Translations under genes and position numbers: made by a program | Notes under the pieces: generated by a model | Database searches by the model: none | What the model saw: only the letters and a program-made list of their open reading frames with translations | What the model was told of the DNA's origin: nothing | Part shown: positions 7,486 through 31,537 of the stretch, piece by piece | How the letters are laid out: each line of letters starts with the position of its first letter | Position numbering within the stretch: the first letter of the stretch is position 1 | Source of the DNA: Kineococcus radiotolerans SRS30216 = ATCC BAA-149 | GTDB lineage: Bacteria; Actinomycetota; Actinomycetes; Actinomycetales; Kineococcaceae | Length of the DNA: 32,000 bases | Direction of reading: 5' to 3' | Assembly: GCF_000017305.1 (NCBI RefSeq) | Contig: NC_009664.2 | Span: 2,310,001 to 2,342,000 of the forward strand

Positions 7486-8318
7486 CAGGCACCGCCTTCC
7501 CTCGAGCATCCGTCGTCCCGCCGTCGACAGGCGGGGCGGCTCCCGACAGTAGTGGAGACCGCCGCGCGGGGTGCACGCGCCTCCACAGCGACCGGCCCCG
7601 TGCACCGCTGCGTCCACCGCGGCGGGCTCCGTCCGCGTCGTCGCTCTCCGTGACCAGAGCGTCGGGGACGGCGCACAGCTTGTTCGAACGCGACGGGTCT
7701 CCCCCACGGCTCCTCGGTCCTCAGGGCTGCCCGTCCCCACCACCAGTCCACAGTGGACGTGGGTTGACGAACTTCACCGTAGAGGGGTCCATCGTCGTAG
7801 TAGCCCTTGTGCACGCTGTGGACAACCCGGTGTCGTCGCAGGTCAGAGGCGGTTCGCCCCCTGTTCCGTGGTGTGGACGGCCTGAGGACCCGTCGACCCC
7901 GTCGTCCACAGGGAGGTGGAGCGCGCCGCCGCTGTCCACCGCCGTCCCCAGGCGCCTGCTGCGGGATCCACCCGTTGTCCACCGAGTTGTCCACCGCTGA
8001 GGACATCTTTGTCCACATGGCTGTCCCCAGCGTGTGGACAACTGTGGAGAAGTGTTCGGACGGGCCGGGAGGAGGCCGTCGGGACCGCCCGCGAGGCGGT
8101 GCCGCGGCCCGCGGTGGGGTGTGGTGCGCCGGGGAGCGGGCGGGCTGCCCCAGGGCCCTGGACGGGCTCTTGACGGGCCCTCGACGGGCCGGTGACGGGC
8201 GTGCGGAGGCGTTCCCGGGGATCGACCACCCGGGACGTGTTCACCGGGACGGTCGGCTCACGGCCCGTCGGCGGGACGACCTCGTCGTCACCCCGCCGGC
8301 CGGTCCCCCGGAGGGGGC
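7486..8318. other. oriC: Chromosomal origin of replication oriC (dnaA-dnaN intergenic DnaA-box cluster)
   Basis: Matches to the actinobacterial DnaA box TTGTCCACA were read directly. Perfect 9/9 boxes: 7817-7825(-), 8009-8017(+), 8033-8041(-). 8/9 boxes: 7902-7910(+), 7975-7983(+), 7987-7995(+), 8043-8051(-). 7/9 boxes: 7744-7752, 7807-7815, 7872-7880(-), 7932-7940. Position between dnaA and dnaN is canonical. Confidence 0.9.
8161..8200 (+). repeat. Four direct GACGGGC repeats at an exact 11-bp step inside oriC
   Basis: GACGGGC starts at 8161, 8172, 8183 and 8194 (ctgGACGGGCtct tGACGGGCcct cGACGGGCcgg tGACGGGCgtg). Confidence 0.7.
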
Positions 8319-13673: not shown

Positions 13674-15082
13674 ACGAAGAGAGGGAACAGCGCGTGACGC
13701 AGCTGGGCTGGTTCGGAAGCTCGCGATCCGCAGCGGGGGACCAGGGTCACCTGGGGTGGGTGTCGACCACCCGCCCGACCGCAGCGACCCCCACCGAAGC
13801 CGCTGCTGACGTTTCACGTGGAACCACCCCGGTCCTCGAGGACCTGCGCGTCGTGCCGAACGAGGACCTCTCCCCCCGGGAGGTGGACGATCCCCAGGAC
13901 GCCGAGGTCGATGTTCCACGTGAAACCGAGACTGATGTTCCACGTGAAACGGCTCCCCCGGCCCCGATCTTCACCGGCGTCCCTGTGCCGACGGAGGAGC
14001 AGTCCCGTGACGAGACCATTGATGTTCCACGTGAAACGCCTCCCCCTGCTTCCGTCCTGACGGCGGTGGAGGAGCCCGACGACGACGTGGTGGGCGACGA
14101 CCTCGGCGCGGTTCCACGTGAAACGTCGCGTTCGGCCGTCGTGGAGCGGTTCCCGCTCCCCACAGAGACCCGCGTCATGACCATCGCCAACCAGAAGGGC
14201 GGCGTGGGGAAGACGACGACGGCGGTCAACATCGCCTCCGCCCTCGCCGCGGCGGGCCTCAAGGTCCTGGTGCTCGACCTGGACCCGCAGGGCAACGCCT
14301 CCACGGCCCTGGGGATCGAGCACCACGCGGACGTCCCCGGCGTCTACGAGGTGCTCGTGGAGGGCAAGCCGCTGGCCGATGTCGTGCAGCGGTGCGAGGA
14401 GGCGCCCGATCTGTGGTGCGCGCCCGCCACGGTGGACCTCGCCGGCGCCGAGATCGAGCTGGTCTCGATGGTGGCCCGGGAGTCGCGCCTGCAGCGCGCG
14501 GTGGCGAAGTACCTCAAGGGGCTGGAGCGCGCCGGTGAGCGCCGGGTGGACTACGTCCTCATCGACTGCCCGCCCAGCCTCGGGCTGCTCACCATCAACG
14601 CCTTCGTCGCGGCGCCCGAGGTCCTCATCCCCATCCAGTGCGAGTACTACGCCCTGGAGGGCCTCAGCCAGCTCCTCGCCAACATCGAGCTGATCCAGGA
14701 GCACCTCAACCCGGACCTCTCGGTCACGACGATCCTGCTGACGATGTACGACGGCCGCACCCGGCTCGCCGCGCAGGTCGTGGACGAGGTCCGGCAGCAC
14801 TTCGGGCCGCAGGTGCTGCGGTCGCTGATCCCGCGCTCCGTGCGCATCTCCGAGGCGCCCAGCCACGGTCAGACGGTGATGGCCTACGACCCGATGTCCT
14901 CGGGGGCGCTGGCCTACCTGGAGGCCGCGCGGGAGATCGCCCAGCGTGGCGTGCACGAAACCCCGGAGCCGGCGCGGGATGCTGCCGTGGGAGCGCCCCC
15001 CGACGTGGCGGACCCCTGGGCACGGTGGACTGGTGGAACGGTGGCGCGACGCGGGTTCGCGTCGAAGGAAGGTGGAGCGTGA
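13670..15082 (+). CDS. parA: Chromosome partitioning ATPase ParA/Soj with a long acidic/Pro-rich N-terminal extension
   Basis: Deviant Walker [33 protein letters not shown] and [12 protein letters not shown] 13670 overlaps the rsmG stop (ATGA). High GC3 in this frame across the extension supports the long form. The shortest possible start is ATG 14177. Confidence 0.88.
13811..13824. other. parS: parS site GTTTCACGTGGAAC (inverted orientation of the local variant)
   Basis: Read directly. In the parA frame it encodes VSRGT. Confidence 0.8.
13913..13926. other. parS: parS site GTTCCACGTGAAAC
   Basis: Read directly (GATGTTCCACGTGAAAC). It encodes DVPRET in the parA frame. Confidence 0.8.
13937..13950. 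other. parS: parS site GTTCCACGTGAAAC
   Basis: Read directly, 24 bp after the previous site. It encodes DVPRET. Confidence 0.8.
14024..14037. other. parS: parS site GTTCCACGTGAAAC
   Basis: Read directly, 87 bp after the previous site. It encodes DVPRET. Confidence 0.8.
14111..14124. other. parS: parS site GTTCCACGTGAAAC
   Basis: Read directly, 87 bp after the previous site. It encodes VPRET. Confidence 0.8.
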
Positions 15083-17552: not shown

Positions 17553-18593
17553 TCAGGCCCGCGGCTGCGGGCGGTCGGTGGTCTCGGAGTCCGGGACGTC
17601 CGGGGTCTCGGTCTCCTCGCGGGCCGGCTGCGCGTCCAGGCCGGCGTCGCCGCGGGCGGCGAGGTACTTCTCGGCGTCCAGGGCGGCGGAGCAGCCCATC
17701 CCGGCGGCGGTGATGGCCTGCATGTACTCGTGGTCGACGACGTCGCCCGCGGCGAACACCCCGGGGACGTTGGTGCGGGTGCTGCGGCCCTCGACGAGGA
17801 CGAAGCCGTTCTCGTCCAGGTCGACCTGCCCCTTCACGAGGTCGGTGCGCGGTTCGTGGCCGATGGCGATGAACAGCCCCGTCGCCGGGATCTCGCGGGT
17901 CTCCCCGGTCACGGTGTCGCGCAGCGTGAGCCCCTCGACCTTGTCCCCGCCGAGGATGCCGGTGACCTCGGAGTTCCAGGCGAAGCGGATCTTCGGGTTG
18001 TCCTCGGCGCGCTTGCGCATGATCCGCGAGGCGCGCAGTTCGTCGCGGCGGTGCACGATCGTCACGGTGCGGGCGAAGCGGGTGAGGAAGGTGGCCTCTT
18101 CGACCGCGGAGTCCCCGCCGCCGACGACGACGATGTCCTGCTCGCGGAAGAAGAACCCGTCGCAGGTCGCGCACCAGCTGACCCCGCGCCCGGAGAGGCG
18201 CTTCTCGTCGGGCAGGCCGAGCTGGCGGTACGCCGAGCCCAGGGCGAGGATCACGGCGTGGGCGCGGTACGTCTCGCCGCCACCGGTCACGACCTCCTTG
18301 ACGTCGCCCTCGAGGCGGACGTCGACGACGTCGTCGGTGATCAGCTCGGCGCCGAACCGCTCGGCCTGCTGACGCATGTTGTCCATGAGGTCCGGGCCGA
18401 GGATCCCCTCGGGGAACCCGGGGAAGTTCTCGACCTCGGTGGTGTTCATCAGCGCACCGCCGGCGGTCACCGACCCCTCGAAGACCAGCGGCCGCAGCTC
18501 CGCGCGCGCGGCGTACAGGGCCGCGGTGTACCCCGAGGGGCCCGAACCCACGACGATGACGTTGCGGATCTCGTTCGTGGTGACGTCGCTCAC
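17553..18593 (-). CDS. trxB: Thioredoxin-disulfide reductase
   Basis: FAD motif [19 protein letters not shown], redox-active CATCDG, NADPH motif [13 protein letters not shown] and GVFAAGDV. It has a ~35-aa acidic C-terminal tail. Confidence 0.93.
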
Positions 18594-18661
18594 CTGTGCG
18601 GCCTGCTTCCTCGGTCGGTGCCCACCCCGTGGTCACGGGGCTCGGGCGGTGCTGCCTCTTC

Positions 18662-18687
18662 AACCGATCGTAGGGGTGCGCTGTTCC
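18662..18687 (-). promoter_or_regulatory. ECF (SigH/SigR-type) promoter candidate upstream of trxB-trxA
   Basis: The minus strand reads GGAAC (18687-18683), exactly 18 nt, then GTT (18664-18662). The remembered SigR/SigH consensus is GGAAT-N18-GTT, and trxBA is a classic target. It lies ~70 nt upstream of the trxB GTG. Confidence 0.5.
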
Positions 18688-18711
18688 CGTCGCCGACCCC
18701 CCGGGCGGGCG

Positions 18712-19494
18712 TCAGGAGCCGGCGGGGAGGGGGACGTCCACCCGGCTGTACGCGGCGTCGCCGGGGACGCAGTCCAGGGCCACGACGACGACCTCGGCCC
18801 CGTCCCCGCTGCGGTGCACGACGAGCGCGGCGGGGACGGTGCGCCAGCTGGCGATCTCCACCGCGAGCACCGAGACCGGGTCCACCCCGAGGCTCTTCGT
18901 GCAGGCCAGGGCCCGCTCGGCGACCGGGCGCTGGGCCGGGTCGCTCGTGGCGGACGCCTCCCCCGAGGGGGCCTTGAGCAGGGTCCGGCCGGGGGCGGTC
19001 GCGTCGGTGCCGCTGGTGGCGTCCGGGGCCCTCCCACCGCCACCCGTGGCCTCCGCGGCCTCCTCCTCCAGGGTCTCCTCGGCGAGGTCCTCCACCGCCG
19101 CGGCGTCGGTGTAGTCCCGGCCGCTGACCAGCACCCTCGCCTCCGGCGGGGCCGCCACGTCCACGGCGGCGGAGTCCGCGGCGCTGGAGCCGCTGGCGCT
19201 GTCGGAGGAGGGTTCGTGCTGCACGGCGAGGACGGCCCCGCCGCCGATGACCAGGATCCCCGCGGCGGCGGTGAGCAGCCGCGGCAGGCGCGGGCGGCGG
19301 CGACGGGCGGCCAGCGACGCGACGGGGGTGTCCGCGCGGGCCGCGGCGAGGGCGGCGTCGAGGCGGGCCACGACGTCGTCGGGGACCGGTCCGACGTCGG
19401 CGGCGGCGCGCAGCAGGGCGCGGACGCGCTGCTCCTCGGGGCTCAGCGGCTCCTCGGCCCCGTCCCCGGCGTTCCCGCCGAACGTCTCGCTCAC
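18712..19494 (-). CDS. Single-pass membrane anti-sigma factor candidate (RsmA/RstA position)
   Basis: 260 aa. It has a short cytoplasmic N-domain, RRRRPRLPRLL followed by the TM segment TAAAGILVIGGGAVLAV, and an extracytoplasmic C-domain. GTG 19494 has GGGAGGAGG 6 nt upstream. It lies immediately downstream of the ECF sigma and upstream of trxB, as in M. tuberculosis and Streptomyces. No ZAS HxxxCxxC motif was seen. Confidence 0.65.
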   Translation of the reverse strand: MSETFGGNAGDGAEEPLSPEEQRVRALLRAAADVGPVPDDVVARLDAALAAARADTPVASLAARRRRPRLPRLLTAAAGILVIGGGAVLAVQHEPSSDSASGSSAADSAAVDVAAPPEARVLVSGRDYTDAAAVEDLAEETLEEEAAEATGGGGRAPDATSGTDATAPGRTLLKAPSGEASATSDPAQRPVAERALACTKSLGVDPVSVLAVEIASWRTVPAALVVHRSGDGAEVVVVALDCVPGDAAYSRVDVPLPAGS

Positions 19495-19868
19495 CGCGGA
19501 CCTCCTCCCGTCTCCCGTGCTCGGCCGGTTCGCGCCCGACCCGTTCGCGCCCGACCCGTTCGCGCCCGACCCGTTCGCGCCCGACCCGTTCGCGCCCGAC
19601 CCGTTCGCGCCCGACCCGTTCGCGCCCGACCCGTTCGCGCCCGACCCGTTCGCGCCCGACCCGTTCGCGCCCGACCCGTTCGCGCCCGACCCGTTCGCGC
19701 CCGACCCGTTCGCGCCCGACCCGTTCGCGCCCGACCCGTTCGCGCCCGACCCGTTCGCGCCCGACCCGTTCGCGCCCGACCCGTTCGCGCCCGACCCGTT
19801 CGCGCCCGACCCGTTCGCGCCCGACCCGTTCGCGCCCGACCCGCAGTACGACGTGGTGCGGCGTTCAA
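19491..19868 (-). CDS. Hypothetical repeat-encoded Arg-rich peptide, LNAAPRRTA-(GRART)x21-GRAR-ETGGGPR, 125 codons (speculative)
   Basis: TTG 19868-19866 overlaps the sigma stop TGA 19867-19865 (TTGA). The stop TGA 19493-19491 overlaps the anti-sigma GTG 19494-19492 (GTGA). The diverged copy ACC GGC CGA GCA CGG differs from the unit ACG GGT CGG GCG CGA only at wobble positions and still encodes TGRAR. Caveats: the TTG start is rare, and all six frames are open across the repeat. Confidence 0.3.
   Translation of the reverse strand: MNAAPRRTAGRARTGRARTGRARTGRARTGRARTGRARTGRARTGRARTGRARTGRARTGRARTGRARTGRARTGRARTGRARTGRARTGRARTGRARTGRARTGRARTGRARTGRARETGGGPR
19528..19842. repeat. Perfect tandem repeat: 21 copies of a 15-bp unit (plus GTTCGCGCCCGACCC / minus GGGTCGGGCGCGAAC)
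   Basis: Read directly. Four consecutive 60-nt sequence lines are identical, and unit starts fall at 19528+15k for k=0..20. A diverged extra copy lies at 19515-19529. The repeat fills most of the 370-nt gap between the sigma stop (19865) and the anti-sigma start (19494). Confidence 0.97.
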
Positions 19869-20467
19869 CGGTTCCCCGGCCCGCCGAGGAGCTCCGCCAG
19901 CGCCGCCCGCCCGCGCGAGCAGCGGGACTTCACCGTGCCCACTGCGACGTCGAGGATCGCGGCGGCCTCGGCGACCGGCACGTCGTACATGTCGACGAGC
20001 ACCAGCGCCGCCCGCTGCGCCTCCGGCAGCCGCGCCAGGGCGCTGGTCACGTCGAGGGCCGTCTCCACGTGCGGGGTGGCGTCCTCGGCGACGGCCAGGG
20101 CGGCCCCGGTGCGGGCGCTCTCCTCCCCGCCGGGACCGACCTCCTCCTCCAGGGGGCGCGTGGGGCGCACCGCCCGGCGCCGGGCCCGGTCCAGGCAGGC
20201 GTTGACGACGATGCGGTGCAGCCACGTCGTGACCGCGGACTCGCCGCGGAAGCGGCCGGCGGCCCGCAGCGCCGAGACGAGGGCGTCCTGGAGGGCGTCG
20301 GCGGCCTCCTCCCGGTCGCCCGTGGTGCGCAGCGCCACCGCCCACAGCCGGTCGCGGTGGCGGCGCACGACCTCCCCGAACGCCTCCGGGTCCCCCGCCA
20401 CGTGCGCGGCGAGGAGCTCCGCGTCGCTGCGCGGGTCCACCGGCGCGCCGGGGCCCGCCGGGGTCAC
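19865..20467 (-). CDS. ECF-type RNA polymerase sigma-70 family factor (SigM/SigT-like by synteny)
   Basis: 200 aa. Region 2: DALQDALVSALRAAGRFRGESAVTTWLHRIVVNACLD. Region 4 HTH: LPEAQRAALVLVDMYDVPVAEAAAILDVAVGTVKSRCSRGRAAL. GTG 20467 overlaps the pseudokinase stop (GTGA). It is only the tail of track ORF 19865..22666. Confidence 0.88.
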   Translation of the reverse strand: MTPAGPGAPVDPRSDAELLAAHVAGDPEAFGEVVRRHRDRLWAVALRTTGDREEAADALQDALVSALRAAGRFRGESAVTTWLHRIVVNACLDRARRRAVRPTRPLEEEVGPGGEESARTGAALAVAEDATPHVETALDVTSALARLPEAQRAALVLVDMYDVPVAEAAAILDVAVGTVKSRCSRGRAALAELLGGPGNR

Positions 20468-22065
20468 GGGGCCTGCGGGGTCGGCGGGGTCGGTGCCTGC
20501 GGGGCCGCGACGGTCCCCGTGACGGCGACCTCCGCGACGCTCGCGCGGAACACGCCGTCCGTGGTCGGCAGCTGCGTGAACCACAGGACCAGGTAGCGGC
20601 TGCGGACCGGCTGCGGCGGCGTCAGCGCCTGCACGCCCCCGGCGGCCGCGGTCGCGACGGGCACCGACCCCTCCAGCGCGGGACCGGGGGCGGTGAGCAG
20701 CGACACCGACCCGCCCTCCCCGCCGGCGGTCAGCTGCACGCCGGTGACGTCGGCCTCCGCCCCGAGGTCGAGGAGGAGCCCCATGCCGTCCTTGAGCCCG
20801 CCGAAGGCCGCCGAGTTGTACCGCTGGCTCTCCCACGCCGTGGCCGGGTCGCCGTCGACCGCCCGCGGCGCCGTCTCGGAGGACTCCCCGCCCCCCTGCG
20901 GGTCCAGCGCGGAGACCACCGCGACGGGCAGCACGGCGGGTGCGGGGGGCGGGGTGCTCGGGGTGGCGGTGGGCGCCGGGGCGCTGCTCGGGGCCGGAGC
21001 GGGGGTCGTCGCCGCGGGCGCGCTCGCGGCCGCGGTGCCGGGGATGGCGGGCACGCTGATCCGGCTGAGCTGCCACAGCGCGAGCACCAGCCCCACCACG
21101 ACGACCGCCCCGACGATGGCGAGCACGAAGCGGGAGTCGTCGCGCGGGGGACGGGCCGTGGGGTGCGGGCGGGTGAACGGGACGGGCGGCTCGGCCTCCG
21201 GCACCACCTCGTCGCGGTTCTTCAGCCGGCCCCGGAACTCCCGCGTCGCGGCCTCGCCACGCATCCGGCGCAGGGTCTCCTCCCAGGGCGCCATCGTCCA
21301 CGGCGCCAGCTGCAGGGCCAGCTCCGCCGGATCGCGCGGACCGTCCTCGTGGGGCCCGAACGTCACGCTGCACAGGGTGTCCAGGTCGTTCGGCACGTCG
21401 GGACGGATGTCCTTGGGCGGCAACGGTTTCCCGTCCGCCGTGGGGGACTGCGGCAGACCGTCGTGCGGGGCTGTCCCCTCCAGCGCGGGCCAGCGGGCCA
21501 CGAGCCCGGCGTAGACGAGCGCGACGAGCCCCACGGCGTCGGCGCGGTTGGCGAGCGCCGCGGCCCGGGCCGGCGACACCGCCGGCGGGTCGACCTCCAG
21601 GGCCGCCTCGACGCCCACGCCCCGGACCCGGACGACCCCGTCGGGACCGAGAACCACGTCGTCGGGGGTCAGCCGGGTGTGGTGCAGCCCGCGCCGGGCG
21701 GCGACGTCCAGGGCGCTGGCGACCTCGCCGACCAGCGCCCGCACGGCGGCCGGCTTCAGCGGGCCGGTGCTCAGCAGCTCGCCGAGGGACCGGCCCTCGA
21801 CGTGCTCCTCGACGACGAACACCGTGGGCGTCCCGCCGGGCTGGGCCGCGTCGGTGCCGGCGTCGAGGATGCGCGGGACGCGGGGATCGGTGAGCATGGC
21901 CGCGCGGCGGGCGGCGTCGAGGAACTCCTCGGCGCGGGGGTCGGCGGCGGGCAGGGTGCGGACCCGGACCGGCCGGTCCAGCGTGAGGTCGCGGCCGCGG
22001 AACTCGCGGGTGCCCGACCCCGCGGCCACCGGCAGCTCCCGGTCCAGGGCGTAGCGGTCGGCCAC
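20464..22065 (-). CDS. Pseudokinase (degenerate Ser/Thr kinase fold) - TM - extracellular carbohydrate-binding-like domain; equivalent to the C-terminal half of M. tuberculosis MviN/Rv3910
   Basis: 533 aa with kinase-like spacing but dead motifs: no GxGxxG (AAGSGTREFRG), VRVRTL instead of VAxK, HHTRLTPDDV instead of HRDxKxxN, and VRGVG instead of DFG. The TM segment is FVLAIVGAVVVVGLVLALW, followed by a Pro/Ala/Thr linker and a C-domain with DGDPATAWES (discoidin/CBM-like). Confidence 0.8.
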   Translation of the reverse strand: MADRYALDRELPVAAGSGTREFRGRDLTLDRPVRVRTLPAADPRAEEFLDAARRAAMLTDPRVPRILDAGTDAAQPGGTPTVFVVEEHVEGRSLGELLSTGPLKPAAVRALVGEVASALDVAARRGLHHTRLTPDDVVLGPDGVVRVRGVGVEAALEVDPPAVSPARAAALANRADAVGLVALVYAGLVARWPALEGTAPHDGLPQSPTADGKPLPPKDIRPDVPNDLDTLCSVTFGPHEDGPRDPAELALQLAPWTMAPWEETLRRMRGEAATREFRGRLKNRDEVVPEAEPPVPFTRPHPTARPPRDDSRFVLAIVGAVVVVGLVLALWQLSRISVPAIPGTAAASAPAATTPAPAPSSAPAPTATPSTPPPAPAVLPVAVVSALDPQGGGESSETAPRAVDGDPATAWESQRYNSAAFGGLKDGMGLLLDLGAEADVTGVQLTAGGEGGSVSLLTAPGPALEGSVPVATAAAGGVQALTPPQPVRSRYLVLWFTQLPTTDGVFRASVAEVAVTGTVAAPQAPTPPTPQAP

Positions 22066-22250
22066 GAGCCCCTCGCCCGTGCTGCGGCCTGCCCCGTCCA
22101 GAACTACCCCCCGTGAACCCGCGCGGAACCGTGGGACCGCGTGCGCGACCCCCGGCCCATGCTAGGGCGCGGACGGGGCGGCACGCTCCGGGCGCGCAGG
22201 GGGCGGCCCCGCCGGGACCCGGCGCGGCGTCCCCCCGCGGGGGAGCGGGT

Positions 22251-23270
22251 TCACAGGAGCTGCTGCAGGTCCTCCGCCCAGGCCTCGGCGGCGAAGACCT
22301 CCGACCCGGGGTCCTCGCCCGTGCTCGGCCGCGGTTCGAACCACACCGTCTTGCCGACCCCGCCCGAGGCGAGCGGGTCGACGCCCCACGCGGAGGAGAC
22401 GGCCTCGACCAGGCGCAGGCCGCGTCCGGTGGTGGCGCCCAGCCCGAGGTGGCGCTGCTGGGCGGGCAGGGGGGAGGAGTCGCTGACCTCGATGCGCACG
22501 GTGCCCGTCGGCATCGAGCGCACGGTGATGGTGAAGGCGGTGCGCGCGTGCAGCAGCGCGTTGGTGACCAGCTCGGAGACCCCCAGCTCGGCGGACTCCT
22601 CCACCTCCGGCACGTGCAGCTCCGCCACGGCCCGGCGGACGTGGCGCCGCGCCGCCGAGACCGCACCGGCCATCGGGTCCAGCACCAGCGCGGGCCCCAC
22701 CAGCCGTCCCGGCGGCTCCCCGGGTGCCGCGCCGGCGGCCACCGCCTGCTCCCCGGGCGGCGGGGGCGGGACCGGCGGCGGGGGCGGCGGTGCCGAGGCG
22801 TCGGCGGGGCGCCAGGGACGCGGCTCCTCCCCCGCGAGCTGGCGCGCGAACTCCCCGAAGACCCAGCGCCGGTAGGCCACGACCTCGGGGGGAGCGGGCA
22901 GGGTGAGCAGGTGCTGCTCGGCGCGGCAGAAGTCGTCGGCCTCCTCCAGCACGTCCCCGACCTGCCGCAGCAGGGGAGCCACCTCCGCGGGCACCGTGTA
23001 CGCGACGTCGCAGGAGGCCCGCCCGGCGGCCGCGGCGGCGTCCAGGGCGGCGGCGGGCTGGGCCTGGAAGGGGGCGTAGACGCGGGCCAGCTCGTCCGCC
23101 AGCGAGAGGAGGCGCTGCGGCAGGGTGCTCGCCGGGCCCCGCTCCCGCCCGATCTGGATCAGGGCCAGCTCCCGCAGCAGGTCCTCGTGGTAGCGCAGGA
23201 ACCGGCCCCGCAACGCCAACGGCAGCCCGAGCAGGCGCACCGTCACCAGCTCCGCCGTTTGATCGACCAC
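22251..23270 (-). CDS. GHKL (HATPase_c, RsbW/SpoIIAB-type) ATP-binding protein with an uncharacterised N-terminal helical domain and a poly-Pro linker
   Basis: C-terminal N-box ELGVSELVTNALLHA, VSDSSP, GRGLRLVEAVSSAWGV and GKTVWFE. Start is set at GTG 23270 because GC3 rises sharply after it; the track start 23348 is less likely. Confidence 0.75.
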   Translation of the reverse strand: MVDQTAELVTVRLLGLPLALRGRFLRYHEDLLRELALIQIGRERGPASTLPQRLLSLADELARVYAPFQAQPAAALDAAAAAGRASCDVAYTVPAEVAPLLRQVGDVLEEADDFCRAEQHLLTLPAPPEVVAYRRWVFGEFARQLAGEEPRPWRPADASAPPPPPPVPPPPPGEQAVAAGAAPGEPPGRLVGPALVLDPMAGAVSAARRHVRRAVAELHVPEVEESAELGVSELVTNALLHARTAFTITVRSMPTGTVRIEVSDSSPLPAQQRHLGLGATTGRGLRLVEAVSSAWGVDPLASGGVGKTVWFEPRPSTGEDPGSEVFAAEAWAEDLQQLL

Positions 23271-31474: not shown

Positions 31475-31481
31475 GGGGCCG

Positions 31482-31525
31482 GCGCGGGCCGGCTGGGGCC
31501 GGTCAGGGGCGGCCCTGGCCCGCGC
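31482..31525. terminator. Nested GC hairpin between the convergent GAF-ANTAR and PilZ genes
   Basis: Outer stem GCGCGGGCC (31482-31490) / GGCCCGCGC (31517-31525). Inner stem GGGCCG (31496-31501) / CGGCCC (31510-31515) with an 8-nt loop. Confidence 0.4.
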
Positions 31526-31537
31526 GGGCGGGTGCGG

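Follow-up and report, generated by a model that had tools for sequence, protein, structure and literature searches.

The spacer between sigM, which encodes a SigM-type sigma factor, and rsmA, which encodes its anti-sigma factor, contains a tandem array of a 15-bp unit in Kineococcus radiotolerans SRS30216. The array lies in a 32,000-nucleotide stretch of contig NC_009664.2 (positions 2,310,001 to 2,342,000), referred to here as the window, and all positions in this strain are window coordinates. An initial annotation had suggested that the array may be a cryptic gene for an arginine-rich (TGRAR)n peptide, coupled translationally to both of its neighbors. We propose instead, with a probability of roughly 0.6, a variable-number tandem repeat (VNTR) in the rsmA leader that is specific to this strain, was expanded recently by slippage, has no selected peptide, and is tolerated since its RNA is folded away.

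A 15-bp repeat with 21 units in SRS30216 and two units in other K. radiotolerans sequences

The sequences used for comparison were reached through a 90% cluster neighbor of RsmA and consist of a second isolate (L099, GCA_014191015.1) and six metagenome or Logan contigs (L081, L098 and L100-L103). In all seven of these K. radiotolerans-type sequences the spacer is 85 bp long and carries two units plus one diverged copy, compared to 21 units in a spacer of 370 nt, measured from sigM stop to rsmA start, in SRS30216. The flanks are 98.6-99.5% identical to the window in the three sequences that were compared (L099, L081 and L102). Two copies are the common state, and 21 copies were seen in SRS30216 alone among the sequences compared. 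Because the copy number differs within the species, the array is a VNTR; because the other K. radiotolerans-type sequences have only two units, the 125-aa peptide would be specific to one strain.

Tandem Repeats Finder (TRF), run on the 32-kb window, reports a 15-bp period with 21.1 copies and 100% matches at 19528-19843. Read on the minus strand, 20 exact units of ACGGGTCGGGCGCGA occupy 19530-19829, and the first unit (19830-19844) has one mismatch to them. The array is followed on the rsmA side by a diverged terminal copy, ACCGGCCGAGCACGG, whose first two bases (AC) are still part of the perfect array. Outside the sigM-rsmA spacer, no further copy of the unit was found within the window or in the 103 loci fetched by the time of that search, and viral contigs gave no match. 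TRF also lists imperfect tandem repeats at 31476-31537 (10 bp, 6.2 copies), 13902-13950 (24 bp, 2 copies) and 8153-8200 (11/22 bp); none of these short repeats matches the perfection of the array between sigM and rsmA.

More distant Kineococcus sequences (K. siccus, K. gynurae, K. rhizosphaerae, Kineococcus sp. R86509, and several metagenome lineages, with a metagenome scan giving nine loci, most of them distant) lack the array; their spacers are 51-111 nt long, each with its own Shine-Dalgarno sequence (SD) before rsmA. In an alignment of the spacers, the diverged copy aligns to a segment present once in L083 and L095-L097. By this alignment, the diverged copy is the orthologue of the relatives' single-copy sequence and the perfect units are its duplicates. 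The unit, like the diverged copy, finds its counterpart in sequence resident in the relatives' spacers, which indicates that the array arose by local duplication and not by insertion.

Variation within the species also bears the mark of exchange between copies. L100 differs from L099 at four spacer positions, all of which are third positions of the TGRAR frame and all synonymous. This corresponds to 4/85 sites (4.7%) in the spacer, compared to 4/603 in sigM and 6/783 in rsmA (0.7-0.8%). At three of these four positions the copies have exchanged states, as in a repeat that undergoes conversion, and not as in synonymous drift. In the two-copy allele of the L100 metagenome contig (2416-2500 of that contig), the first unit has GCA for GCG and the terminal copy, GGGTCGAGCACGG, is nearer to the unit; judged from these bases, the allele indicates conversion between copies.

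Other tandem duplications were noted in the same spacer of two relatives. At 861-930 of L087, a distant relative, TRF finds (CGACCA) repeated 6.7 times, in frame with rsmA, and this frame is open back to a GTG that overlaps the sigM stop, so that RsmA of L087 may have a Thr/Ala-rich N-terminal extension. At about 190-225 of L086, an imperfect 18-bp duplication, gtggccgatcgagcaaca / gtggccgatcgacgaacg, was read directly, being under the TRF threshold. The sigM-rsmA spacer seems to be prone to tandem duplications of 3n length.

Coding potential of the TGRAR frame

The geometry described in the initial annotation was borne out by direct reading. The diverged copy differs from the unit at exactly five third positions of one minus-strand frame, all synonymous, and the calculation that only 3 of 3003 possible placements of five changes are strictly period-3 is correct. 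The TTG that opens this frame overlaps the sigM TGA, the TGA that closes it (19493-19491) overlaps the rsmA GTG (19494-19492) within GTGA (19494-19491), and the frame is open between them. The product had been put at 125 aa and about 40% arginine; the computed values are 125 aa and 37.6%. All six frames are indeed open across the repeat. It should be added that very long open frames cover real genes together with the array on both strands, at 19865-22666 (minus, 933 aa), 18376-20205 (plus, 609 aa) and 19247-20596 (plus, 449 aa). We take such frames to be typical of DNA with 74.6% GC, in which an open frame means little.

The claim that the frame is a gene was not supported by its codons, by a search for homologues or by the relatives. 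The real genes of the window have GC contents of 0.74/0.53/0.95 at the first, second and third codon positions (GC1/2/3), and GC3 of the TGRAR frame is 0.60. The frame relies on CGA, which makes up 2% of the Arg codons, and on GGT, which makes up 9% of the Gly codons. Codons with a usage of 1-3% (GCA, CCA, CGT, ACT and GGA) are found in its unique flanks, and its log-odds against a coding model amount to -4.6 bits per unit. The most gene-like frames are GSGAN, which is in frame with rsmA and has a GC3 of 100%, and its antisense partner FAPDP. An N-terminal (GSGAN)n extension of RsmA was rejected, as there is no upstream ATG, GTG or TTG in frame and the relatives have a TAG. Plus-strand genes in the FAPDP and RARPV frames have no homologues and were taken as long antisense frames of the kind common in high-GC DNA. 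When all six-frame translations were used as the query, the repeat was found in none of 5.8 billion predicted proteins.

Both kinds of change that the initial annotation had named as refuting it in relatives were seen between species. Indels that are not multiples of three are present: L082 has a 1-nt deletion, and the spacers of L104 and L092 are 51 and 78 nt long. Nonsynonymous drift is seen as well, with 12 of 21 variable spacer sites at codon positions 1 and 2. Counted by codon position 1/2/3 in ungapped columns, the sites variable between species number 6/6/9 in the spacer, 82/86/145 in rsmA and 19/17/106 in sigM. The 21 spacer sites are too few to separate absence of constraint from weak constraint, and nonsynonymous change is plentiful. 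The spacers of the closest lineages (55, 67, 85 and 370 nt) all have lengths of 1 mod 3. They differ by 3n for mechanical reasons, because what is gained or lost is a whole number of 15-bp units or of GGA triplets in the SD. It is true, as had been argued for coding, that the unit length is a multiple of three; a 15-bp unit keeps the frame automatically.

The SigM-type promoter motif and the rsmA leader

The sole window match to a SigM-type promoter motif, GGAACC-N16-CGTC, straddles the sigM stop. Its -35 element is formed by the final Gly-Asn-Arg codons of SigM, the TTGA falls in the promoter spacer between -35 and -10, and the -10 element, CGTC, ends 6-8 nt ahead of the first repeat unit. 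For comparison we used 80 actinomycete loci (L001-L080) recovered with the sigma protein, among the matches listed, a set to which K. radiotolerans itself does not belong. In 77 of the 80 loci listed, including those of Streptomyces, Micromonospora, Dactylosporangium, Lentzea and others, the motif, in fuller form GGAACC-N16-CGTC(ccA), precedes the sigM stop by 8-128 nt, with constant spacing and always in the same codon phase. GGAACC itself is invariant, but the preceding base varies although it is a first codon position, so that the constraint acts on the DNA and not on the protein. In a Kineococcus clade with a 198-aa sigma factor (including L082 and L095-L097), sigM stops before the motif, which is kept in non-coding DNA.

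In M. abscessus, SigM binds a site with GGAACCG as its -35 element, and the consensus of this site reportedly agrees with the one in M. smegmatis (PMC13491425); GGAACCG at 19875-19869 of the window is identical to this -35 element. A literature search for ECF27 gave nothing relevant, and a simple scan for sigma-70 promoters and intrinsic terminators, not designed for promoters of extracytoplasmic function (ECF) sigma factors, also returned nothing. Transcription from the motif is predicted to start at about 19844-19841, that is, in the first repeat unit. Were the motif active, rsmA transcripts derived from it would begin at the array and would not include the TTG, because the TTG sits between -35 and -10. 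The TTGA on which the initial annotation had placed a coupled start codon is thus, as far as sequence comparison can tell, the new sigM stop within a conserved promoter motif.

The overlap at the other end of the spacer also has a counterpart in the relatives. The sigM stop lies within NTGA in 78 of the 80 loci listed, which we take to be the overlap with the rsmA start; in Angustibacter, read directly, the sigM stop overlaps the GTG that opens the downstream ORF. Kineococcus is exceptional in having a truncated SigM, ending in GNR-stop at the -35 element, and a spacer. In view of the NTGA at nearly all of these stops, the GTGA at the rsmA start is probably an inherited relic, its A being left from the old sigM stop.

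Transcribed, the array is predicted to form one long, imperfect, self-contained hairpin (-240.6 kcal/mol, compared to -205.8 kcal/mol for shuffles, z -6.25), and the two-copy leader shows no significant structure (z +0.25). The rsmA SD is predicted to be unpaired with a probability of 0.69-0.75 at 1 to 21 copies when the leader begins at the predicted transcription start, and with a probability of 0.55-0.56 for both alleles on read-through RNA. Occlusion of the SD by the structure of the array, which had been considered, is predicted at no copy number. A G-quadruplex (G4) reading was considered as well, with 10 of the 14 G3N1-7 motifs on the minus strand of the window lying within the array, and was rejected, as RNAfold with G4 energies keeps the hairpin, with a single G4 at its tip. 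An Rfam scan of 18500-20600 at a permissive E-value gave nothing. With the SD predicted to stay accessible and rsmA having a strong ribosome-binding site (RBS) of its own, the expansion would be tolerated and near-neutral.

We propose the following course of events. The ancestral sigM would have had, as it has in most actinomycetes, a poorly conserved C-terminal tail running across the embedded promoter motif and the rsmA RBS and ending in an NTGA overlap. In Kineococcus, sigM would have been shortened by a new stop no further downstream than the -35 element, the old tail becoming a spacer of 51-111 nt that kept the motif, the SD and the GTGA. In the K. radiotolerans lineage, the 15-bp segment at the predicted transcription start would then have been duplicated to give two units next to the older diverged copy, and in SRS30216 replication slippage would have led to 21 identical units. 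The repeat RNA would pair with itself, the rsmA SD would be as accessible as in the two-copy allele, and rsmA would be translated from its own strong RBS.

The features of the region are listed in Table 1. The sigM product matches the NCBIfam model NF007225 (SigM) with 264 bits against a cut-off of 190, as well as Pfam Sigma70_r2 and r4_2, and its start is backed by a 200-aa gene call in the near-identical L081 and L099. RsmA is 100% identical to K. radiotolerans ABS05961; its homologues carry PF27063 (RsmA_C), and the match to the NCBIfam anti-sigma model is weak. The order sigM-rsmA-trxB-trxA is identical in all relatives examined. If its start is called as in L081 and L099, sigM would share a 4-nt overlap (20464-20467) with the 533-aa ORF upstream. 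In the 118-nt gap between rsmA and trxB, a sequence GGGAAC-N18-GTTG is found at 18661-18688 on the minus strand; it resembles the SigR/SigH-type promoter of trxB in other actinomycetes. Going by this site, trxB-trxA would probably be independent of the leader of the upstream rsmA.

Table 1. Features of the sigM-rsmA region in K. radiotolerans SRS30216 (window coordinates)
Feature	Position	Strand	Description
trxB (thioredoxin reductase)	17553-18593	-	Pfam Pyr_redox_2, 5.6e-52; trxA next
rsmA	18712-19494	-	anti-sigma factor of SigM, 260 aa; start within GTGA
Formal ORF, TTG to TGA	19491-19868	-	125 aa, 37.6% Arg; frame open
rsmA Shine-Dalgarno	19501-19508	-	GGAGGAGG, 6 nt before GTG; kept in relatives
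Diverged terminal copy	19515-19529	-	ACCGGCCGAGCACGG, read as ACC GGC CGA GCA CGG; 5 differences, all period 3
Tandem array	19530-19844	-	21 units of 15 bp, ACGGGTCGGGCGCGA; first unit begins with G
Putative SigM-type promoter motif	19850-19875	-	GGAACC-N16-CGTC; -35 at 19875-19870, -10 at 19853-19850; sole window match
TTGA	19865-19868	-	sigM stop TGA (19867-19865) overlapped by TTG (19868-19866), which opens the formal ORF
sigM	19865-20467	-	SigM-type ECF sigma factor, 200 aa; ends GNR-TGA
533-aa ORF upstream of sigM	20464-22065	-	weak F5/8 type C match

Alternative explanations and related systems

The coupling geometry itself can be separated from the claim of an evolved coding sequence: the ORF does overlap the sigM stop and the rsmA start, but the array as an evolved coding sequence is not supported. 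A possible, though rather unlikely, alternative is that the spacer works as a ribosome relay, in which, on transcripts reading through from sigM, ribosomes that terminate at the sigM TGA reinitiate at the TTG, traverse the array and stop at the TGA overlapping the rsmA GTG. The peptide would then be junk, translation itself and not its sequence would matter, and a change in copy number would do no more than lengthen or shorten the relay. Genes are coupled most commonly through NTGA, and a short ORF can hand ribosomes on to the gene that follows it (PMC12548453); here NTGA junctions stand at both ends of the spacer, the paralogous and within-species variation is confined to third positions of the TGRAR frame, and the spacer lengths of the close relatives differ by multiples of three. 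To place a number on the geometry, a bridge was defined as an ORF, or a chain of ORFs with starts a few nucleotides from the previous stop, that leads from the sigM stop to the rsmA start, and 12 Kineococcus-type spacers were compared to a null in which the spacer interior was shuffled and the length mod 3 randomized. A strict double overlap arises in 18-27% of the trials for 11 of the 12 spacers (24% for the two-copy K. radiotolerans spacer) and in 0% for L092, in which the triplet at the stop is CTG. The double overlap is not rare by chance. Strict double overlaps were observed in five of the 12 spacers, where 2.5 are expected (P = 0.08 if independent); apart from K. radiotolerans, the spacers concerned are those of L083, L084, L086 and K. 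siccus (L001). The clade with the 198-aa sigma factor and K. gynurae have two-step ORF chains. When chains are counted, 10 of the 12 spacers are bridged, where 4.2 are expected (P = 0.0004 if independent). This excess is suggestive only, because spacers inherited in common make the lineages non-independent and because the data had been seen before the criterion was chosen.

Several observations speak against a relay. The bridge is broken in L082 by the 1-nt deletion and in L092 by the CTGA and the 78-nt spacer. The TTG is inside the conserved promoter motif and would be missing from promoter-derived transcripts, rsmA has its own strong SD, predicted to be accessible, and the 21 CGA and 21 GGT rare codons would slow the 21-copy version. 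Indels of 15-bp and 3-bp units are 3n mechanically, and the between-species counts in the spacer fit a uniform distribution as well as a weakly coding one. It may be noted that in L082, L095, L096, L097 and L088 the 198-aa SigM stops 8-20 nt upstream of the promoter motif, and that this stop is overlapped by a 6-codon mini-ORF, whose TGA overlaps the next short ORF in a chain up to rsmA; the L082 chain is the one interrupted by the deletion.

Changes in copy number could also act on expression. As a regulatory contingency repeat, the G-rich array, which is the first 315 nt of the leader, would alter expression of rsmA and possibly of trxB-trxA through an RNA hairpin or G-quadruplex, R-loops, transcript stability, or translational uncoupling of sigM and rsmA; a shifted SigM:RsmA ratio would then give heritable, reversible variation in the stress regulon. 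We consider this improbable. Its attraction is that the array begins where transcription from a conserved SigM-type promoter is predicted to start, that frequent slippage is expected of 21 perfect units, that the array RNA folds far better than shuffles and holds most of the minus-strand G3N1-7 motifs, and that the distance from the sigM stop to the rsmA start has risen from 85 to 370 nt. Coupling reportedly changed gradually in a screen of spacings from +50 to +850 nt, and short distances are described as the most efficient (PMC12548453). However, the predicted accessibility of the SD and the start codon is constant across copy number, the hairpin is preferred in RNAfold even with quadruplex energies, trxB has a promoter-like site of its own, and the long allele is known from one genome. 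Less probable still is a combination of the two ideas, in which the Kineococcus spacer would be a translated relay derived from the split-off SigM tail and the VNTR a length rheostat of 30-125 codons that tunes RsmA:SigM. An assembly artefact, with either the 21 copies of the reference or the two copies elsewhere being misassembled, is highly improbable. Perfect tandem repeats are hard to assemble and the comparison sequences are mostly short-read assemblies, but seven independent assemblies all have exactly two units (they include an isolate genome with a 2.36-Mb contig, and Logan and k127 contigs), and the window sequence sits in a 4.76-Mb contig. Silent collapse to two units is unlikely because the metagenome contig names give a k-mer of 127, which exceeds the 85-bp length of the spacer.

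Several observations weigh against the VNTR without a selected peptide that we favor. The strictly period-3 differences between unit and terminal copy are not easily given by chance (P about 0.001-0.01), and a neutral model leaves only chance or a period-3 non-coding constraint to account for them. Such a constraint may be the alternative to chance: sites 1, 7 and 10 of the segment are also those that vary between species. Bridged spacers are in excess of the number expected, and the repeats that arose independently in the spacers of other lineages likewise have 3n units (6 bp in L087, 18 bp in L086). Only the -35 element is matched to a published SigM site, the -10 CGTC resting on its conservation, and the reading leans on a putative promoter activity, a predicted start and a presumed neutrality.

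The array has features in common with several known systems. The initial annotation had invoked the logic of mycobacterial interspersed repetitive units (MIRU, e.g. in senX3-regX3). This intercistronic coupling logic is described: MIRU lie between co-oriented operon genes, and the ORF within them is coupled to the start codon that follows at -4 nt (PMC12548453). The array itself is not a MIRU. It shares with MIRU the placement of tandem repeats between two cistrons of an operon in an actinobacterium, the unit length that is a multiple of three, and an ORF whose stop overlaps the next start at -4, here also beginning on the sigM stop. MIRU units measure roughly 50-100 bp and the unit of the array 15 bp; MIRU are apparently mobile and insert at start codons, and the array arose by local duplication; no dispersed family was seen in the 32-kb window, the 103 fetched loci or the predicted proteins; and the genus is Kineococcus, not Mycobacterium. 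Bacterial intergenic VNTR or minisatellites resemble the array in their perfect head-to-tail copies, degenerate terminal copy, strain-variable number, and signatures of slippage and conversion. The array differs from them in its position inside a sigma/anti-sigma operon, where it coincides exactly with the start predicted for a SigM-type promoter, and in that one long allele is known. With leader or relay ORFs that couple translation it has in common the NTGA at both ends and the short-ORF chains recurring in related spacers; the difference is that the rsmA SD is strong and predicted to be accessible, and that the internal promoter motif would bypass the relay start. Compared to the ancestral sigM-rsmA arrangement, the promoter motif, the SD and the GTGA at the rsmA start are retained in the window, but sigM of Kineococcus ends at or before the -35 element and the SRS30216 spacer is longer by 285 bp of repeat. 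The literature search found no paper on K. radiotolerans tandem repeats.

Read as a VNTR, the array is a tidy but ordinary case, in which one strain of a radiation-resistant actinobacterium has an expanded minisatellite in the spacer of an operon. It is usable as a typing marker, and it calls for caution in gene calling where high GC keeps six frames open. If copy number shifts the balance of SigM and its anti-sigma factor, the array would be a simple-sequence switch on a sigma/anti-sigma pair; were the rheostat reading true, its CGA- and GGT-laden copies would set the set-point of the stress regulon heritably and reversibly. The SigM-type motif embedded in the 3' end of sigM is possibly more general in reach than the array. 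Its presence in 77 of the 80 loci listed suggests a conserved SigM-driven promoter for rsmA, that is, a negative feedback loop, and this feedback on rsmA is directly testable.

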